NCBI GenBank assembly: GCA_965197905.1 | Contig: CBDAOB010000003.1 | Location: 864,001 to 928,000 of the forward strand | Source of the DNA: Candidatus Latescibacterota bacterium | Lineage (GTDB): Bacteria; Latescibacterota; UBA2968; UBA8231 | Length of the DNA stretch: 64,000 nucleotides | Reading direction: 5' to 3' | Shown: positions 44,508-56,522 of the stretch, one piece after another | Layout of the letters: every line of letters begins with the position of its first letter | How positions within the stretch are numbered: the stretch's first letter is position 1 | Program-made: the position numbers and the translations under genes | Notes under the pieces: model-generated | The model's database searches: none | The model's input: the letters and a program-made list of their open reading frames with translations, nothing else | What the model was told of the DNA's origin: nothing

Positions 44508-45535
44508 ATGCTCGAAACAACCGTAGTTGGCAGTTATCCGCAGCCGGACTGGCTGATCGACCGCGATCGCCTGCAGAAACGGCCGCCGCCGCGAGCTGTG
44601 GCTAAGGAGTTGTGGCGGATTCCGGAGGAGTATCTAACCGAAGCTCAAGACGACGCGACACGTCTGGCCATCAACTACATGGAAACCGCGGGTATCGATA
44701 CGATCACTGACGGCGAGGTTCGCCGAGAGAGCTACTCCAATCGATTTGCGAACGGTCTTTCTGGCATCGACATCGATAACCAGGTGTCTTCATCGAACGA
44801 AACGGTCGGGAGAATTCGGCGCCCCGCATCGTTGGTCCGATCCGTCACAAGGGGGATGTGGAGGTGAGCGACGTTCAGTTCCTACGCGCCAACTCCGACC
44901 GGAAGATCAAGATCACCATACCGGGTCCCTTCACCATGACCCAGCAAACCCAGGACGACCACTACGGCGACGAGCAGGCGATGGCCCTGGACTTTGCCGC
45001 GGCTGTCAACGTTGAGATCAAACATCTCTTCGCCGCCGGCGTCGATGTGGTCCAGCTGGATGAACCATACCTCCAGGCGAAACCAGAAAATGCCCAGGAG
45101 TACGGCGTCGAGATGATTAATAAAGCGTTGGAAGGGGTGACGGGAACCACCGCTTTGCACATGTGTTTCGGCTACGGATTTTTCATCAAGGACAAACCGG
45201 CCGGTTATTCCTTCCTGGAGGAGCTCAACGACACCACCGTGAATCAGCTGTCGATCGAAGCCGCGCAACCGGGGTTAGACGTATCCATTCTCAAGGCGAT
45301 TCCGGAGAAGATCATTATTCTGGGGGTCATCGACAACTCCAGCCTAGATGTGGAAACACCCGAACTCGTGGCAGACCGGATCCGCACGGCCCTTGAATAC
45401 GTTCCTCCAGAGCGATTGATGCCTGCGCCAGATTGCGGCATGAAATATCTGCCGCGGGATGCCGCGATGGCGAAACTAAAAGCCCTGGTTGCAGGCACCG
45501 AGATCCTGCGAACCGAGATGGCAGGGTCGATATAG
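44508..45535 (+). pseudogene. Cobalamin-independent methionine synthase II-like (MetE C-terminal domain) protein, frameshifted at ~44780
   Basis: TVVGSYPQP, TDGEVRRESY, then in the other frame PGPFT, QLDEP, LHMCFG, APDCG. Adding one C at 44780-81 gives DN-PGVFIERNGRENSAPRIVGPIR. Confidence 0.85.
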
Positions 45536-47032: not shown

Positions 47033-48418
47033 TCAATCTTCGGCGAAGCCGAAGAGCCACTTCTGCTCCGAAGCGACGGACAACACCAGGGACCAGCCGG
47101 TCTCAAGTGGCCCCCAGAGATCCTCGTCCTCGATGTAGAGCCCGTACCGCTGGGTGCCGTCATCGTCCGTGACAATCTCGCTCCCCTGGGCGAAGCGGAA
47201 GCGGGTGCCCCTCAAATCCTTCGCTTCGTCACACGCCCCCTTGTCTCGGTAGACGGTCAGTTTGCCCAGCTCGAACTCCCAGGCAAACAAACAGCTAACA
47301 CAGGGCTCCACCGGCACGGCTCCCGTAATCTCGTAGGAGAGCTCGCAGGTTGCACCGGTGCCGACGTTCCGCTCGAAGCGGATGCGGCCGTTACCGGTAT
47401 CCGTGTCGATAGTGCCCGTCCATGAACTGCGGTCGCCGCAGCCCCAGCATTCGCACCCGGAGCAGGGAGGAACCCCTTCTGACCGGACGAAGAATCCGAC
47501 TGAATCCACCGAAGCGGAAGCGAAGAGGCCGATCCCGTTCTCGATGTTGAACAGGGGCCGCTGAAATCCCTGGCCGGCTTCTCCTGCGCCCCGGTCCGCA
47601 TCGACGTTATCGGTGCGGACAAGGTCGAACCAATTCTGGTCGACGGCGAAGAGTTTGACCTTGTGCCGTCCAGCGAAGAAGATGCCCTGCCACGGCAGGT
47701 AAAGGGCCGCTTCGTCCAGTCTCAGGAGTGGTGAGGTCTCCAGGCGCTCGAGGTCTTCCACATCCTCGTCGCTGATCAGGTCACTGTCGAACAACAGCGG
47801 ACTGGTGTTCTCCAGGTTCTGCACCCCGAACTGGTAGGAGGCGGCATCGCCGGCGAGCTGCAGCCGGACTTCCAGGGCGCCGACCGTATACTCAAGCTGG
47901 TTCTCGGGGGCCTGGTAGACACCGTCGCCAATGTCGTCGAACAATCTCAGGCGCCGTAGTTCCTTCTCCAGGTCATCGTCCAGCAATACAAACTCGGAGA
48001 TGCGCATGCGTGGTGGGGTCTGGGTTGTCGCACGAATCTCTGGGTGTCCTGTCGAGATGACAGACAACTCGTAGGTGGAGGCGGGGGCCACGGGCGGCGC
48101 TCCATCTGGAGGCAGGTAGCGTCCCGGTGTCGACTGATCGGGTAGATAGTCGAAAACTGCGTCCGCGGTCTGAATCGAGACCTCCGCTCCGCTAAACGCC
48201 GTTGCGGCCGCCAAGTAGGCCAAGCCAGGCGCCACCGTGATCCGCAGATCCACGTGGGGCAAGGGGGCGTCGACGATGAGGATGGCGTCGACCACCACAG
48301 TGTTGTCCTCGCTGGGGCCGAACAGGTCTTCTGGATCCCTGTCCGCCTTGAGGGGCCCGGGCGCGTCGCAAGCCAGCAGAGTTACAAGAGAGAGGAACAA
48401 AAAGAGTAATGCACCCAT
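47033..48418 (-). CDS. DUF4249-like lipoprotein with Cys-rich C-terminal extension
   Basis: Lipobox LLAC, NIENGIGLFASASVDS, downstream of TonB-dependent receptor. Confidence 0.75.
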   Translation of the reverse strand: MGALLFLFLSLVTLLACDAPGPLKADRDPEDLFGPSEDNTVVVDAILIVDAPLPHVDLRITVAPGLAYLAAATAFSGAEVSIQTADAVFDYLPDQSTPGRYLPPDGAPPVAPASTYELSVISTGHPEIRATTQTPPRMRISEFVLLDDDLEKELRRLRLFDDIGDGVYQAPENQLEYTVGALEVRLQLAGDAASYQFGVQNLENTSPLLFDSDLISDEDVEDLERLETSPLLRLDEAALYLPWQGIFFAGRHKVKLFAVDQNWFDLVRTDNVDADRGAGEAGQGFQRPLFNIENGIGLFASASVDSVGFFVRSEGVPPCSGCECWGCGDRSSWTGTIDTDTGNGRIRFERNVGTGATCELSYEITGAVPVEPCVSCLFAWEFELGKLTVYRDKGACDEAKDLRGTRFRFAQGSEIVTDDDGTQRYGLYIEDEDLWGPLETGWSLVLSVASEQKWLFGFAED

Positions 48419-48421
48419 CGC

Positions 48422-51016
48422 TCAGAACCTGAAGTCGATGCCGAAGGTGGGAAGGACCGGGAACATCCTGACCACGTTTGGTTTCTTGCTGGAATCCTCG
48501 GTGTCGTATTCGACAAACCATTCGTTGCGTCGGTTGTAGATGTTGAAGACCTGCACGTAGAGCTCGGCGTTGACCCCGTCGCCAAACATCGTGAGCGTAC
48601 GCCGCGCACCAACGTCCAGACGGTGATAGGGCAGCAAGCGGGCCGTGTTACGCCGCGCTGCGAGCAGCCGGTCTACGGGCTGGTCGGAAGCCGGGTTGCG
48701 CAGTGTATAGCGGGCACCGGCGGGGGTAAAGGCCTGGCCGGTTCCGTAGACAAAATTGGCAGTCAGAATCCACCCACCGCAGGTGGGACAGAGGGGGGCG
48801 AAACGATAGGTGGCAGTCAGCGAAAGATCGTGGCGCCGATCGTACTTCGGTGGGAAGGACTGGCCTGCATCGATCTCCGGGAAGGTTCGCCGCGTCCTGC
48901 CAAGAGTGTAGCCCAACCAGCCGGTTAGGCGGCCGCTGCGTTTCTCAGCGAACAGCTCCAGGCCGGCGGCGTACCCCTTGCCTCCGGTCTTGAACACGTC
49001 TTCGGAGGTCTCCTGCTCCCTGTTCTCCTCCCGCTCCTCGTCGATGACGACCAGATTCGCCAGATCGGTGTAGTAGGTCTCGGCGCTGAGCCGGTAGGCG
49101 TTGGAAGGTTCCCATTCCACGCCCGCCACCGCCTGCCGGGAACGTCCGGGTTCCACAGTCTCGTCCAGCGGGACCCAGCTGTCGGCGCCGCTGAAACCCT
49201 CTGTCGACACCAGCTGCAGGTACTGCCGGTATTGCCCCGCGGCGAGCTTGAGGCGCAGACCCTCCTGCAGCAAATGGCTGACAGACAGACGTGGATTCAC
49301 CGACAGGTGATCCCCCTCTTCGTAGTAGGTACCCCGAACGCCGAAGCGAGCTTCTGTTAGCTGAGTGAGCTGCCAATCGTCCTGGAGGTAGGCCGAGAGG
49401 AGGAACGGTTCGATGGACAGATTGTCTCTGTACTGATCGAACCGGAAGCCGTAGTCGAAGCGGAAGAAGGTGAGATCGAGCCCCGTTCGCAGCGTGTGAT
49501 CGGTCGCGGCGTAGTAGTCCAGGTCCCCCTTCAGGGTTATATCACGCACGCGGTTGCGGATGGCGATGGGTGTATCGAAGATGTCCAGGGTGATGTCGCT
49601 CTGGTATTTGGAGAACATCGCGATAGCGCGTCCGAAAACCGCTGGGGAGAAGACGTGGGTCCAGCGACCGGTCAAGGCCCGGTTGCCCCAGCGCATATCG
49701 AAGGCGAGACTGTCGGCTCCTTCGCTCACACCGACGTTGAGATCGTCGTCGCCCCCGTAGACACTGATCATGAGGTTGTCATCTGGTGTGACCTGGGTGT
49801 TCACCTTGCCGTTGATATCGTAGAAGTAATAACCAAGGCCATCCAGGTTGTCCGAAGCGCCACGAATCGCGCGCAGAACCGGATCGATGTAAGTGCGCCG
49901 GCCGGCCACCATCCAGGAACCCCGACCCAGAGGTCCTTCGACCATGAGGCGGCTGGAGATGAGGCTGACGCCGCCGCTGGTGTTGAAGTCGCGGCGATTC
50001 CCATCGCGATTCTGTACGTCGAGGACCGCGCCCAGGTTGCCGCCGTACTGGGCGGGATAGGCGCCCTTGTAGAAGGTGACGTCCTTGATGGCGTCCGGAT
50101 TGAAGGTGGAGAAGAATCCGAAGGCATGGGAGGGGTTGTAGAGCCGCACTTGGTCGAGCCGGATCCCGGTCTGGTCGGGGCCACCCCCGCGCACGTAAAG
50201 CCCGCTGCTGAAGTCCGACGCCGTCTGCACCCCCGGCAGCAGCTGCAGGCTGCGCAGCAGGTCGGGTTCCGCCATGGCCGGCATGCGCTGCAGCGTCTGC
50301 ATTTTCAGGGCGACGACGCTCGGCTGCTGGCGCAGCTCGTTTTTGACCGGGTTAGCCTCCGCTTCCACCACAACCTCACCCAGGATCAAGGTCTCCCGCT
50401 CCAGCTCGATGTCTAGGCGCAGGTCCTCTCCGGGGGTCAACTCCAAGGTGTCGCGGAACGTGGTGTAACCCACATAGGACACCGCAACTGCAGAAATCCC
50501 TGCGGGGACGCCCTTGATAGCGTAGTAACCTTCGGTGTTGCTGAGAGCGCCCATATTTCGCTCCCCGAACCTCACCGCCACGGTGGCGTTTGGAAGGCTT
50601 TCGCCGTCCCTGCGATCGCGCACGAAACCACTGACGGTGCCGACTCGACGCTGTTTGCCCGACCGTTTCGAGGGAACAATGGCCAACTGACCCTTTTCGG
50701 TAATGTGCAGCTCCGTTCCGGTCTTATTCATCACGTAGAGCAAGGCTTCCAGGGCTCGTACGTCTTTCATTCTGATCGTAATCTTCTCGTTGACCGGAAT
50801 GCGGTCGCGATTGTAACTCAAAGTGAAATCACCCTTGTCGGCGATATCGACGAGGGCCTTCTCCAGGGGGACATCGGTGAGATCGATGGATATGACTGTG
50901 AGAACGGCTTGCGGAAGGTTGCGTCCGCTGAGCTCGATGAAGGAGGCGGGACGAGCGGTTGAGGGAGCGATCAAAGCGGCAATGGCGGCCACCAGGACGA
51001 GCCAGGATCTTGTCAT
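48422..51016 (-). CDS. TonB-dependent receptor with N-terminal STN signalling and carboxypeptidase-like domains
   Basis: STN-like N-terminus, SGFVRD..GESLPNA, VRGGGPDQ, YKGAYPAQYGG, terminal DFRF. Confidence 0.92.
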   Translation of the reverse strand: MTRSWLVLVAAIAALIAPSTARPASFIELSGRNLPQAVLTVISIDLTDVPLEKALVDIADKGDFTLSYNRDRIPVNEKITIRMKDVRALEALLYVMNKTGTELHITEKGQLAIVPSKRSGKQRRVGTVSGFVRDRRDGESLPNATVAVRFGERNMGALSNTEGYYAIKGVPAGISAVAVSYVGYTTFRDTLELTPGEDLRLDIELERETLILGEVVVEAEANPVKNELRQQPSVVALKMQTLQRMPAMAEPDLLRSLQLLPGVQTASDFSSGLYVRGGGPDQTGIRLDQVRLYNPSHAFGFFSTFNPDAIKDVTFYKGAYPAQYGGNLGAVLDVQNRDGNRRDFNTSGGVSLISSRLMVEGPLGRGSWMVAGRRTYIDPVLRAIRGASDNLDGLGYYFYDINGKVNTQVTPDDNLMISVYGGDDDLNVGVSEGADSLAFDMRWGNRALTGRWTHVFSPAVFGRAIAMFSKYQSDITLDIFDTPIAIRNRVRDITLKGDLDYYAATDHTLRTGLDLTFFRFDYGFRFDQYRDNLSIEPFLLSAYLQDDWQLTQLTEARFGVRGTYYEEGDHLSVNPRLSVSHLLQEGLRLKLAAGQYRQYLQLVSTEGFSGADSWVPLDETVEPGRSRQAVAGVEWEPSNAYRLSAETYYTDLANLVVIDEEREENREQETSEDVFKTGGKGYAAGLELFAEKRSGRLTGWLGYTLGRTRRTFPEIDAGQSFPPKYDRRHDLSLTATYRFAPLCPTCGGWILTANFVYGTGQAFTPAGARYTLRNPASDQPVDRLLAARRNTARLLPYHRLDVGARRTLTMFGDGVNAELYVQVFNIYNRRNEWFVEYDTEDSSKKPNVVRMFPVLPTFGIDFRF

Positions 51017-51065
51017 CTTAACGGAGCCCGTTCATGGCTCTCGCATCAAGATCATCGTCGTTCTT

Positions 51066-52085
51066 TCAGTCTTTCGATGTCAACCGGACCACATCGCCAG
51101 TTCGCTGATATTCCAGATCCGTCAATGCCGAGCTCAGCTCCAGAACACCCTCCAGGGACTCAGCGTCGATATGCAACGTAAGCTGCTCCGCAGCAATAGC
51201 GGTATCCTCAGTAATAAATCGCACATCGTACCAGCGTTCTAGTTGATGCAGGATCTCACTCAAGGGAACGCTGTCAAAGAACGCTTCCCGATGCAGCCAG
51301 CCCAGATGTTTCGCTATCTCCACAGCACGCGGTTTTGCTGGCAAACCGTCCTTCGGACACACGCTCATCTCTCCCTTCCCGATCCCCACATCCTGCCTTC
51401 TGTCCCCATCAGCACCGAATGAGACTTTTCCTTCCGCAACCGCGACGGTGACCCTCTGTTCCCCCTGCCACGCTCTCACATTGAACCGAGTTCCCAGAAC
51501 CCGGATTCTCGCGTCATCGGCGCGTACGACAAACGGCTGGTTCGTACGGGACGCCACCTCGAAATACCCCTCGCCGGAAAGCCGCACCGCGCGCTCTTCT
51601 CCTTCGAACGTTGCGGGATACTCTAGAACGCTTCCGGAATCCAATCGAATCCGGGTGCCGTCGCTGAGAGCGAGTTGGCGATGAGCACCGCTCTCCACCA
51701 CCATCTCTTCCCATTCGATCCGTTTCTCGAACGGGAAAACTCCTGCTTCCCGCGCCCCGTAAAACGCCACCGAGGTGGCGATGAGCAAGACAGCGGCTGC
51801 CGCATACCGACGGACAGGATGAAACCAATCGACGAAACGGCCGGCACGGCGGGTTTTTACGGCCGGCACGGTTATTCCCGTCTTCTCGGCGATGTCGTGC
51901 CACATTCCGTTCAGATCAGAGGTGACAGGCTGTGGTTCCGACGTATTCCACACGGTGCTCATGATCGCCATAAGCCGCCGATTTTCCGGGTCGGCAGCGA
52001 TCAGCTCTTCCACTGCTGCCTTTTCTTCCATCGAGCATTCACCCGATAGATAACGTGCGAACAACGCGTCGGATGTCTCGCTCAT
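51066..52085 (-). CDS. fecR: FecR family anti-sigma factor
   Basis: Single TM, LSDGTRI.L, GEGYFEV, VLGTRFNV, LERWYDV. Confidence 0.92.
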   Translation of the reverse strand: MSETSDALFARYLSGECSMEEKAAVEELIAADPENRRLMAIMSTVWNTSEPQPVTSDLNGMWHDIAEKTGITVPAVKTRRAGRFVDWFHPVRRYAAAAVLLIATSVAFYGAREAGVFPFEKRIEWEEMVVESGAHRQLALSDGTRIRLDSGSVLEYPATFEGEERAVRLSGEGYFEVASRTNQPFVVRADDARIRVLGTRFNVRAWQGEQRVTVAVAEGKVSFGADGDRRQDVGIGKGEMSVCPKDGLPAKPRAVEIAKHLGWLHREAFFDSVPLSEILHQLERWYDVRFITEDTAIAAEQLTLHIDAESLEGVLELSSALTDLEYQRTGDVVRLTSKD

Positions 52086-52185
52086 GTCTCCTCCATAGTC
52101 CCAGCCTGCCAACCTGTCAGAAACTCACCGAAAGCTTTGCGCCCAGACTTCCGTTCTCTGGATTGAGAGTGGGACTCATGCTCAT

Positions 52186-52791
52186 CTAACCGGCAGACTT
52201 TCCGTATTTGAATCTCACCGCGTCCCGCTTTCGCTCAATCGTCTTGATGCCGTCAATCCAGTCGTGAAGGATCTGACCTACCAGCAAACCTGCTCCGAGA
52301 ACGACGAATGGCCCGCCCCCACCCCCATCGGTTTTTCGCTCCAGTTTCCTCAGCTTGTAGGTCAAAACACCGCCCTCGTCCTCGATCGGTATCTTCTCGT
52401 AACGTCTGACCCTGCCGCGCACTCCGGTCACATCGACGATCTCGAAGTTGGTTTTCTCCCATCTGTTCTCCTTCTTGTCCCTCATGGATGCGCCAAGGAC
52501 AACGGATACTCCCCCCAATACGGCGGCGCCCACATGCATCCAGCCTTCTCTCTTCTCACCGGCATAGAAGTGCAACGTCCCGGGGAGTGGGACCGACATC
52601 AAAATCAAGCCGACACCCAACCGGCGGTTGGCGTCTCTGTACTCCTCCAGGGTCATTTCAGCCGGTACCGGCCATATGGGAACCTCATTAAGCATCTCGT
52701 TGCCACCATGACTCTGTGCCGTTGAATCTTCGACTACGACGATCGATGATGAGAAGAGCAGGACTGCGAAAACTCCGATGATCTCTTTCAC
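52186..52791 (-). CDS. Hypothetical membrane/secreted protein between ECF sigma and FecR
   Basis: GGAGG RBS plus GTG at 52791; signal-like N-terminus, PG..HFYAG motif, TM segments. Confidence 0.65.
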   Translation of the reverse strand: MKEIIGVFAVLLFSSSIVVVEDSTAQSHGGNEMLNEVPIWPVPAEMTLEEYRDANRRLGVGLILMSVPLPGTLHFYAGEKREGWMHVGAAVLGGVSVVLGASMRDKKENRWEKTNFEIVDVTGVRGRVRRYEKIPIEDEGGVLTYKLRKLERKTDGGGGGPFVVLGAGLLVGQILHDWIDGIKTIERKRDAVRFKYGKSAG

Positions 52792-52963
52792 GATAACCTC
52801 CAGGATGGGCTGAAAAACTACGATCTTGGACCGGAATACTCGATAAAACACACCACTGATACCCCTGAGTCAGAAGTTACCCTGACATCGATCACAAAAA
52901 AACTCCACCAATGAATGTGCCTGCGACGACGTGGAGGCGCGAGTCTCAGAAAATGGGAGGCGC

Positions 52964-53515
52964 TCAGAGCAGGTGGGCGAGTCGTTCCCGCAAGAATCTC
53001 AGGGCATGCCCCATCTGTGTTTCCACAGTCTTGATGGAAACGCCCTGAATCTCGGCGATCTCGGTGTAGGTCAAATGATCGAAGCGGTTCATGGAAAAAC
53101 AGATCCGAGTTTTTTCAGGGAGTGCCTCGACGGCCTGGTGAATTGCAGTGGAAATCTCCGTACCCTGCAACTCATCCTCCGGCGTCTTTGGTCCGGGAAA
53201 CTTCGGAGTTTTGTCTTCCAGGCTCCGGCGCACCACGTCTCCATGCCTCAGGTGCTTCAGCGCCCGGTTCTTGGCGGCGGTGTACAGGTAGCTCTTCACG
53301 CTGAGGGTTGGATCGAGCTGGGTCCTGTTCCCCCACACGGAGAGAAACAGATCCTGGACGAGATTCTCCGCAGTTTGAATATCGCGTACATAGCGGCCGA
53401 CGAACTGAATCAGGGGTTGACAATATGAGCGGAAAAGTTGCTCAAACGCCTTCCCGTCGCCGACGCGAATATTCCGGACCCATTCGGCTTCAATATGCTT
53501 TGACACGTTGGGCAC
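52964..53515 (-). CDS. ECF RNA polymerase sigma-70 factor
   Basis: GDGKAFEQLF, AENLVQDLF..W, LPEKTR..F, EIAEIQGVSIKTVETQM. Confidence 0.95.
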   Translation of the reverse strand: MPNVSKHIEAEWVRNIRVGDGKAFEQLFRSYCQPLIQFVGRYVRDIQTAENLVQDLFLSVWGNRTQLDPTLSVKSYLYTAAKNRALKHLRHGDVVRRSLEDKTPKFPGPKTPEDELQGTEISTAIHQAVEALPEKTRICFSMNRFDHLTYTEIAEIQGVSIKTVETQMGHALRFLRERLAHLL

Positions 53516-53826: not shown

Positions 53827-55021
53827 ATGGCTGCATCTAATTCCCCCCAGGGGTCTCGTTCCCTTCCGGAACATCCCGATCTTCACCAACTCAAGAAACA
53901 GGCCAAGGAACTGCTCAAGGGCTATCGCTCTGGTAATTCGGCAGCGGTAGCTGAGGTGGAAACCCACGAGCGGGAGCCGGATCCAGGAAGATTCTCCCTG
54001 AACGATGCGCAGCGGGTGTTGGCCCGGGCATACGGGTTTACCAGCTGGGCGCGGCTAGTTGAGCGCGTAAACGGCTTTAGCGCCGAACGCTTTTGGGTAG
54101 CCGCCCAAGAGGGGGATCTGCAGACCCTGAAGTCGATGGTTGCCAAACGACCTGCGTTGGTCATGATGGCACGGCCCAGCCACGGCAATCCGTTGCATTG
54201 CGCCGTGCTCAACCGGGACGTTGCATGCGCTCGCTTTCTGCTCGAAAACGGAGCCGATCCTCACAAAGGTGTCTATCCGCACCGTGAGTCCACTTCCCCG
54301 CTTGTTCTGGCACAAGAAAGGGAATTCGACGACATCGTAGAGGTCATTGAAACCGAGCTCCAGCAACGGAGGTTACGGGTCGGCGCCACGCGATCAGATA
54401 CGAGAGACGTTGCAGAGGCGATCCGCAAAAACGATGAGGACGCCGTGTACCGGTTACTAGAAGCGGACGCTGAACGCGTGACGGCCGTCGACGAACGGGG
54501 CCGCAAGCCCCTGCATCACACTGCTGCGGCGCGCAATCGGACGCTGACCGCACGCATCTTGCAATTGGACCGCAAACTCTCCGAACCTGACGTCGACGGT
54601 TTGAGCCCGATCGACTGCGCCGTGTTGGCGGCCGACTGGACGCAGAGAGAGGAAACTACGAGGGCGGGCAGATCCGTGGCCGAACTCCTGTTAGAGCACG
54701 GAGCGGATCCTACGCCGCGAAGCGCCGCAGCGACCGGAGACTTGGCGTATTTGCAATCACTGAATCGCACAAACCTGGAGGCATGCGCCATAGACGGTGG
54801 TGGTGGGTTGTTGACACTGGCCGTGAAATACGGCCAACGGGAAGTCTTGAACCATCTGCTGGAATCAGGTCTGGACCCGGATGAGCGCGTGCAACTCGAC
54901 GATGCAGAGGAAGAGATCTACACCTGGGGAATGCCGCTCTGGCACGCCGCTTCCTACTCCGAATACGAGATGGCGGAATCGTTGATCGCTGCCGGCGCTG
55001 ACGTTAACGCGGCAGTTTATG
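53827..55021 (+). CDS. Ankyrin-repeat protein, exon 1 (N-terminal LP..PDL.QLKKQAKELL domain plus ankyrin repeats)
   Basis: GAGGAGG RBS; ankyrin repeats (NPLHCAV..FLLENGADP, PLWHAA..LIAAGADVN); interrupted after the first base of codon 399. Confidence 0.9.
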
Positions 55022-55770
55022 GTGCGCCGTGCTAAGGCGCACATCTTCAGTGGGTGCGAATCCCACCCGGCAAGGGTCGCTCCAGCCGGTAGCAATCGGA
55101 GCAGTGGTGGAGGCGACGAAGCCGCTGAAGCCTCCGGTGTAGAGGGTCGCCTTGGGCGACTTGGCGAGCACACAGGCCGTAACGTGAGTAAACGCTGAGC
55201 AGGCCTCGAAAAGTGTAATGCGGAAGCCGACCTGCCCGTAAACCAGGGAAGGCCGCTGCAGCTGGGGAAGTCGAGCGACAAGCGCACTCAGCTGTTCCGC
55301 CGGGGTAGTGGCGACAGCATGTGTGTAAGAGGAGATGTGGCGCAACACGGGAAGCCTCATCCGGTGGAAGCAGCGAGTGCCTCCAACCGGTAACCCGCGA
55401 GGGCCAGACTGGGCTGGATGAGGTGGCGGACAGGCGCGTAGTACCGAGGAAGCCGGGTAACTCCGGTGGAGGGAAGGGGCCTGACTTCGGACATGCTGCG
55501 GAAGTGCAGAGGGTTGGAGAGTGGCGTGAGCCTATTGCCTCCAGCAGTAAGACTAGTATGCATCGGAAGCAGCTTGACTACCAGGTGAAGTCCTTGTGGC
55601 GTGTGCCTGGATGTGACGTTCGTCGGGAAGCCGGATGCGGGAGATCCGCACGTCCGGTTTGAGGCGGCGGGAACTGGAAACGTAGCGATGGGAGTCGGAC
55701 TGAGGGCTATGGCGAAAGCCATGGGGAACCCACCGAACCCTAAGGCTGGCGCGCCAGTTCTCGACCCTAC
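55022..55770 (+). mobile_element. ORF-less group II intron (749 nt; IIB/bacterial class E-like by inference)
   Basis: 5' GTGCG; domain V GAAGCCGGATGCGGGAGATCCGCACGTCCGGTTT (55627-55660) with AGC triad; domain VI GGGAACTGG...CCAGTTCTC with bulged A at 55764; 3' end CCCTAC; EBS1 CGTAAAC (55237-43) pairs with exon end GTTTATG. Confidence 0.93.
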
Positions 55771-56522
55771 CCAGCGGTTCACCGATGGACCGGGCTTACG
55801 GTGCCGACGATGAGAAGATGAAGGTCTTGTTGCGTCGCCACGGTGCGTTCACTAGCGTCGAAACCATGGGACTGTATCGCGACACCGAAGCGGCACGAGC
55901 AGTCCTGGAAGGAAGGACGACCGCGTACTCTCATCCCGACCCGGTCAGAGACGGTTCTACCGCAGAGAATATGCTATGGGGGGCGGCCTGTGGGGGCGAT
56001 CCCGAGATCGTCGCCATGTGTCTCGCCCGCATCGACCGTGCACCGGACGATTCATGGTGGGCGGTAATCCTCCTGCAACCCATGCGCACGTGGAACCATG
56101 GTTACCACCGACGCCATTCGGGCTTCGACAGGTCTACCTATACGCAATGTCTCGACTTGCTGTTGCAGCACGGCATCAATCCGGACGTTACGGATCAACG
56201 GGGGTTCACTGCGCTGCACGATCTTGCCCACGGCTCTTGTTCAGGTTCCTGGAACATGACGGAAAAGGAGGAACTCGAATTCGGCCGCCTGTTGTTGGAT
56301 GCCGGCGCCAGTTTGGCAGCGCGCGATCCGCTACTAAGGTCAACGCCTCTGGGATGGGCTTGCCGCAACGGTCGAATTCGGCTGGCTGAACTAATGATCG
56401 AACGCGGCGCTGCCGTCAACGAACCGGACGCCGAACCCTGGGCAACGCCACTTGCGTGGGCAACGAAGATGGGTCACGAAGAGATTGTGACGCTGCTTCG
56501 AGGTCGCGGGGCGAAGGCGTGA
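55771..56522 (+). CDS. Ankyrin-repeat protein, exon 2 (spliced product 648 aa)
   Basis: G(55021)+CC joins in frame to give VNAAVY-ASGSP-MDRAY; further repeats TALHDLA, TPLGWAC, TPLAWA..GH. Confidence 0.88.

Follow-up and report, generated by a model that had tools for sequence, protein, structure and literature searches.

An ankyrin-repeat gene in the window (the whole stretch of 64,000 nt of Latescibacterota DNA analysed here) is interrupted by 749 nt with the hallmarks of a group II intron and no ORF of their own. The question raised by this locus is whether the intron is a retained ribozyme that switches its host gene between a short and a long isoform, as the original prediction held, or a mobile element that happened to land in a protein-coding gene. 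The features on which the answer depends are collected in Table 1.

Table 1. Features of the intron, its guides, and its host gene (window coordinates)
Feature	Position	Strand	Evidence
ORF-less group II intron, IIB-like, probably class F (g3)-related	55022..55770	+	1 of 13 genomic copies
Domain I segment	55048..55187	+	Rfam RF02003 group-II-D1D4-4, 106.8 bits
Domain IV, no ORF; degenerate remnant common to ORF-less introns of another family	55488..55622	+	64-75% identity in 11 introns, 7 genomes
Domain V	55628..55660	+	AGC triad 55629-55631, GAGAU loop, CG bulge
Domain VI, long, bulged branch A at 55764	55663..55768	+	fold
5' exon, ankyrin-repeat gene, codons 1-398 plus one base	53827..55021	+	328/398 residues identical to G002 ortholog
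3' exon, ankyrin gene, through stop; holds 245-aa ORF 55785-56522	55771..56522	+	219/249 residues identical to G002 ortholog, gapless
EBS1 (CGUAAAC), loop of domain I hairpin	55237..55243	+	fold; pairing with all 13 sites
IBS1 (GTTTATG), resembles attC L'' box	55015..55021	+	with EBS1: 6 Watson-Crick, 1 wobble
Putative EBS2 (GUGUAA)	55213..55218	+	pairing peak, offsets -15 to -17, 31 loci
IBS2 (TAACGC, -17 to -12), resembles TAAC of attC R'' box	55005..55010	+	with EBS2: 4 Watson-Crick, 1 wobble, 1 mismatch
EBS3 (G)	55308..55308	+	pairs with first 3' exon base C55771

An ORF-less group II intron interrupts the ankyrin-repeat gene

The intron begins with GTGCG and ends with CCCTAC, and its termini (GTGCG ... 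AC) agree with the group II end rule of 5' GUGYG and 3' AY. The prediction that an ORF-less group II intron occupies this segment was borne out by the match to RF02003, at more than twice the cut-off of 49 bits, together with recognizable domains V and VI. The second Rfam comparison, with RF00029, gave 39.2 bits over 55626-55738 (E 9.9e-6) and thus stayed marginally below the cut-off of 40, which is due to the length of domain VI (~106 nt); a similarly long domain VI was seen in most of the RT-encoding relatives for which the intron end was located. In domain V, the AGC triad and the CG bulge were as first described, but the loop noted as GAGA is GAGAU, with 5 nt. The unpaired A that had been placed 7 nt before the intron end was recovered in domain VI by the fold. 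Compared with shuffled sequences, the fold of the whole intron was nothing unusual (z -1.58).

Since 16 of the 49 nearby boundary pairs also left an open frame after excision, the frame by itself cannot set the intron ends. Two comparisons fix these ends: that among the 12 full copies, which lie at different sites, and that with intron-less orthologs, in which VY-A-SGSP runs on gaplessly.

The gene with the intron removed is colinear with intron-less homologs

Excision of the intron gives a frame of 1947 nt, encoding 648 aa plus the stop, with a junction that reads DVNAAVY-A-SGSP, while the unspliced frame runs into a stop codon at 55033-55035 after 402 aa; both outcomes had been foreseen. The 648-aa protein aligned gaplessly, over all 648 residues, with the intron-less ortholog from a genome of the same genus (G002, 85% identity), and the close orthologs in G002, G020, and G004 (80-86% identity) were all without the insertion. 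Junction-spanning loci from other genomes were uninterrupted in 14 of 14 cases (the 3 close orthologs and 11 distant homologs), reading Y-A/G-SG, which confirms the colinearity across the VY-ASGSP junction that the prediction depended on. Restoration of the frame is nevertheless no sign of selection or function, since any exact sense insertion by reverse splicing gives the same result.

A comparison of homolog lengths, which took in proteins of 221-704 aa, revealed no natural form near 402 aa among the best 119 non-self homologs: 116 of these measured 557-675 aa, and the rest 238, 339, and (partial) 496 aa. Of the 36 same-family genomes searched, only 3 yielded a close ortholog. The gene is patchily distributed, and paralogs are present in the source genome. 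No clear promoter was found upstream of the ankyrin gene. Divergent from it, at window positions 47033-53515, lie genes for an ECF sigma factor, a FecR-like anti-sigma factor, and a TonB-dependent receptor, as well as a lipoprotein-like gene. At 44508-45535, two overlapping ORFs form one apparently split gene, which we take to be cobalamin-independent methionine synthase-like; the split is possibly a frameshift or an assembly error.

Near-identical copies and a candidate helper RT in the source genome

The source genome holds 13 copies of the intron (12 full and one 3'-truncated), which are 99.6-100% identical. The window copy carries no private change: it is identical to the copy at C3:1186425, with which it shares a T at base 267 of the intron, a position occupied by C in ten other copies. 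Gapless behind this sibling, at C3:1187174-1189158, follows an intron of 1985 nt whose RT/maturase frame is intact and contains YADD, and the search for an RT able to act in trans, proposed with the original prediction, was thus successful. The candidate helper RT scored 323 bits with TIGR04416 (cut-off, 300); in Pfam, it matched RVT_1 and GIIM only, with no endonuclease domain found in that search and the frame ending soon after. Its nearest protein relatives are in Latescibacterota records. Three features of TeI3-type ORF-less introns were found here: no ORF, several young copies, and a related RT in the same genome. Because the ORF-less intron differs from the helper intron by 13-20% beyond the first 225 nt, recognition by the helper RT is assumed.

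At C3:1186425-1189158 (L031), the ORF-less copy and the RT-encoding intron stand head to tail in an attC left half, identical over their first 225 nt. On its two sides the pair is flanked by what resembles a toxin gene of the HicA type and a remnant of a HigA-type antitoxin gene.

EBS1, EBS2, and EBS3 pair with the exons

EBS1 pairs with positions -7 to -1 at 13 of 13 sites, with 6-7 of 7 positions paired when wobbles are counted, and covaries with IBS1 across relatives. For EBS2, positions -17 to -11 gave 4.29 of 6 pairs in the real combinations, compared to 3.27 in permuted ones, and 0 of 5000 permutations reached the real value; this statistic draws on the 31 of 94 related loci that gave guide and exon, which are kin and not independent and contain 16 different EBS2 words. 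Watson-Crick covariation of EBS3 with the first 3' exon base was seen in 15 of 17 relatives (17 of 80 loci were usable). With all three guides pairing with the exons, the intron is IIB-like. In IIB1 and IIB2 introns, the base immediately 5' of IBS2 is described at -14 (PMC8643678); compared with this, the spacing in the present intron is 3-4 nt longer, and across its RT family EBS2 pairs 4-5 nt further upstream than is usual.

Copies lie at the end of the attC L'' box and in four genes

Eight of the 13 copies were found in attC sites (5 complete, 3 left halves), all in the top (cassette) strand and at the end of the L'' box. In the rebuilt sites the parts of an attC are recognizable: R'' (TAAC) and R' (GTTA), and between them L'' and L', which form an inverted repeat, the EBS1 word recurring in L'. 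An attC profile built from five of the rebuilt sites gave 48 matches, 45 of them within two arrays; site calls combined this profile of our own with inspection, and the matches on those five sites are circular, since the profile was made from them. A first strict attC pattern scan, with 29 scattered matches and no cluster, was replaced by the profile. Among the empty attC sites on C2, 18 of 21 lie within 100 nt after the stop of a same-strand ORF. Both arrays (C2:5230-35559 and C3:289408-363180) are large and without an adjacent intact integrase. An intact IntI (366.7 bits; cut-off, 265) is encoded ~84 kb from the nearest array match, on C3, and the C2 array has only a 5' intI fragment nearby, 1.7 kb before the array. 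One array cassette encodes a serine hydrolase with a beta-lactamase fold, which scored below all family cut-offs.

One of the eight, at C3:360466, has 79 upstream bases in common with C2:7475 and probably arose by cassette duplication rather than by an insertion of its own. Pairing with EBS1 is poorer in most of the empty attC sites, yet two sites with 7/7 pairing are empty. Outside the arrays there are 122 empty look-alike sites, so that attC is favoured either by further features or by selection. Full-length relatives in G002 and G020 also have attC-like flanks; for the RT-encoding relatives, 1 of 40 rebuilt sites matched the (genome-specific) attC profile, and attC targeting therefore seems local to the sublineage.

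Four copies are genic, all in sense (in the ankyrin gene, flgE, nuoH, and an FG-GAP-type gene), and one further copy is intergenic. After exact removal of the intron the ankyrin gene is free of lesions, unlike the other three host genes: nuoH has a +2 nt frameshift 79 nt upstream of the intron (compared to G002), the FG-GAP-type gene has a +2 nt frameshift 108 nt downstream of it, and the flgE frame ends after 497 codons and resumes in another frame. The 3' part of flgE was not found in G002, G020, or G004, and its frameshift is therefore without an outside check; all three frameshifts may be real or long-read assembly errors. The intact state of the ankyrin gene fits a recent hit, but it fits selection for keeping the gene spliceable as well.

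The copies lie on the locally G-rich strand in 13 of 13 cases, compared to 64 of 124 empty look-alike sites. This bias, drawn from ~8 independent regions and a weak skew that also tracks gene direction, fits insertion at replication forks, which has been reported for class F (PMC8919778). At C1:61500-69000 (L039), around nuoH, the divergent nuo cluster has the order G, H, J, K, L by inspection, with no nuoI between H and J.

Likely class F affiliation and mosaic origin

In a tree of 21 proteins, the helper RT grouped with two g3 references (support 100/99). Class F, like the ORF-less forms, was reportedly defined in a 2008 survey. The references, taken from the list in Table S2 of PMC3552965, were 2 of g3, 1 of g1, and 1 unclassified; the set is without g2, g4, and core F and without published members of C, D, and E, and the g3 branches are long; given this thin set, class F (g3) is the likely affiliation of helper RT and intron. 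Two traits agree with it, namely an RT-X protein without an endonuclease domain and a long, structured domain VI, which is a tendency of IIF introns (PMC3753933). Class E was considered and dropped, as published class E fragments looked unlike by eye and the tree favoured g3.

Judged from sequence comparison, the copies are young and the loss of the ORF is not. Domain IV resembles the beginning of the local RT ORF only weakly, and its identity to ORF-less introns of another family (Table 1) was measured on complete introns, which 11 of 21 loci gave; two-sided changes were found in 8 of its 47 predicted pairs. Since this ORF-less domain IV is common to another family, the non-autonomous lineage would be old and mosaic. 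Compared to the local RT-encoding intron, bases 1-225 are 100% and bases 226-466 80-85% identical, and domain VI is 85-93% like that of full-length introns and ~50% like that of the ORF-less relatives. An identical first stretch followed by a divergent remainder points to recombination, and the simplest reading is an exchange between an old ORF-less lineage and a local autonomous intron. A close RT was found in 3 of 5 genomes holding ORF-less relatives; in the other two, G109 and G101, none was detected at E 1e-60.

Further introns were seen in passing. ORF-less relatives interrupt a long frame in sense in G052 (L184; 205 + 413 codons) and in antisense in G106 (L202; 470 + 166 codons). The source genome also has a single-copy ORF-less group II intron of 827 nt (C3:348603-349429, L034, minus strand), with a different domain I and an 86% identical domain VI; it lies in another attC subtype, which its EBS1 candidate matches. 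A second family of introns, whose RT frame has 566 codons, is present in 11 near-identical copies (e.g., C3:277843-278535, L004), several of them inside a repeated 3.5-kb unit; in the tree it groups with the g1 reference, a placement to be read with caution because of long branches. A third RT-encoding intron (C1:176662-177803, L024) has a 454-codon frame whose C-terminus is class E-like by eye, and a domain V/VI match of 55.6 bits at C5:668275-668349 (L022) has no RT match nearby.

Read-derived contigs

Read evidence came as assembled contigs from 4 of 20 runs. Two RNA runs of one study gave contigs of 603 and 612 letters, with one difference between them, that hold the intron alone and neither exon; because the intron is multicopy, DNA may be present in the library, and contigs drop rare forms, these are uninformative on splicing. 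Contigs of two other runs extend from exon 1 into 29 letters of intron, and one contig runs from the last 26 intron letters into exon 2; both overlaps fall below the bridging threshold of 31 letters, and one of the runs is possibly the source of the window itself. One RNA contig begins exactly at 55022, a break for which the tandem copy accounts equally well. The 55021-to-55771 joint was absent from the contigs of the 4 runs, which has no bearing on splicing, given that contigs drop rare forms.

Comparison with known systems

ORF-less bacterial introns are nearly always found beside related RT-encoding introns (PMC4424553). In Thermosynechococcus elongatus, 17 TeI3 ORF-less copies, some of them genic, are mobilised in trans by TeI4 'driver' proteins (PMC2882425). 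Our intron is like TeI3 in its many ORF-less copies stemming from one deletion, the good EBS/IBS pairing at each site, the few genic insertions, and the RT-encoding relatives in the genome. It is unlike TeI3 in its main target, attC, and in an ORF-less domain IV shared between families; moreover, TeI3/TeI4 are chloroplast-like IIB1 introns with an endonuclease domain, while the RT here is without it and groups with class F/g3. In Trichodesmium erythraeum, four ORF-less introns in dnaN are spliced by the RT of the RIR intron (summarised in PMC12584367). In both cases a bacterial gene for a protein carries ORF-less group II intron sequence that depends on an RT in trans, a dependence which in ours is presumed; dnaN, however, is essential and its splicing demonstrated, whereas the ankyrin gene is patchy and its splicing predicted from sequence.

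The closest described class members are Ni.ha.I1 and D.a.I1 (IIF, g3), which likewise combine an RT-X of ~440 aa without endonuclease, an intron of ~1990 nt, IIB-like guides, and a long domain VI (PMC3552965, PMC3753933). The helper RT is only 47-48% identical to theirs, and the available parts of these accounts mention no ORF-less form, attC targeting, or distant IBS2. IIC-attC introns enter at R'' on the bottom strand, where they use a DNA hairpin together with a short EBS1, and UHB.I2, of IIB, CL1, sits just after attC in cassette orientation; one IIC intron has been reported in the top strand (PMC7923331). The present intron shares the integron attC with the former and the IIB type and cassette orientation with the latter, but its own position is the end of L'' on the top strand, selected by three base-pairing guides. 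Covariation of EBS2 and top-strand insertion at the end of L'' also set it apart from the IIC-attC group, whose class C RNA has no EBS2. Among the papers found in the literature outside subscription journals, none dealt with class F introns in attC L'' and none with this lineage; the 2008 class F survey may describe the IBS2 spacing.

In Clostridium tetani, C.te.I1 occupies one locus, to which it is adapted: its 5' site is shifted, it has four 3' ends, and it splices alternatively (PMC3919590). Like C.te.I1, our intron is an ORF-less bacterial intron in a protein gene from which unspliced RNA gives a shorter product; unlike C.te.I1, it is a multicopy mobile element with standard ends. Locus-specific adaptation without mobile siblings, as in C.te.I1, contrasts with an identical sibling and 13 copies here.

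A mobile intron that probably hit the ankyrin gene off target

We consider it very probable that the intron is a non-autonomous mobile group II intron and that its presence in the patchy ankyrin gene is a young hit at a mimic of its attC target. The RT of the 1985-nt relative would bind the ORF-less RNA in trans, and the RT-bound intron would splice as a lariat through the bulged A. The intron RNA would reverse-splice into DNA that pairs with EBS1 (-7 to -1), EBS2 (-17 to -11), and EBS3 (+1), and this target DNA would probably be single-stranded, at replication forks. The ankyrin gene would have been hit off target because its D-V-N-A-A-V-Y-A codons chance to spell the R''/L'' motif. The 648-aa product would then come only from spliced RNA, and unspliced RNA would yield a truncated by-product and no evolved isoform.

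A wider scenario, which we put forward tentatively, starts from an old, SINE-like ORF-less class F lineage in Latescibacterota. Its domain IV may have been recombined onto a locally active autonomous intron, inheriting the guides and the helper RT of the latter. The resulting split reader (IBS2 at -17/-16, a spacer of 4-5 nt, and IBS1) would fit R''/L'' of attC; landing in the top strand at L'' would probably lock cassettes, and genes that spell the motif would become dependent on RT-assisted splicing.

Among the alternatives, the one with most standing, which we nevertheless regard as unlikely, is that the ankyrin gene was knocked out by a recent insertion of a copy without useful splicing in vivo; the sole difference from the young-hit explanation is the amount of splicing. 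The genes that host the other three genic copies are frameshifted, as expected if hits persist mainly where the gene is dispensable, and the rarity of close orthologs (3 of 36 genomes) together with the paralogs in the genome would also agree with a knock-out. Against it speak the splicing determinants, which are all intact, with IBS1 paired at 7/7 with one wobble, the identity of this copy to the one beside the RT gene, and the self-splicing of class F introns in vitro (PMC3753933).

It is very improbable that the copies spread by DNA recombination (cassette duplication or gene conversion) in place of retrohoming, or that the genic copy arose as an artefact of assembly. One pair of sites does go back to a duplication, and ORF-less and full-length introns agree in every base of their first 225 nt but differ beyond; however, the other sites combine unrelated flanks, which largely refute spread by recombination, with exact ends and guide-matched targets that include four unrelated genes, and an assembly error would not put a repeat exactly at a guide-matched site and rebuild the ortholog gaplessly. 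Least credible of all is the retained ribozyme of the original prediction, i.e., a domesticated intron switching between 402-aa and 648-aa isoforms, possibly gated by the RT in trans: although the ankyrin gene is otherwise intact, the cut falls (from sequence) at the turn between two repeats, so that the short product could fold, and C.te.I1 (PMC3919590) and the Trichodesmium dnaN introns (PMC12584367) provide bacterial precedents, against it stand the 13 near-identical copies, the lack of any private change in this copy relative to its mobile sibling, 14 of 14 related loci without the intron, the best 119 homologs with no form near 402 aa, and the altered splice sites and missing helper RT of C.te.I1, neither of which applies here.

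Significance

Bacterial protein genes interrupted by an ORF-less intron have been described before, and the present case is best understood as a side hit by a selfish element. New here are the target in L'', the remote position of IBS2, and the sharing of an ORF-less domain IV between families. Base pairing into the L'' box of the top strand is a third route of introns into integron arrays, and insertion at L'' should block the hairpin needed by the integrase. The distant EBS2 pairing matters for predicting or programming target sites, and the 749-nt RNA with its natural protein-coding host is compact enough to serve for testing how class F introns splice and how they move in trans. ORF-less bacterial introns were termed rare in a 2015 review (PMC4424553); the shared domain IV suggests that they can persist across families.
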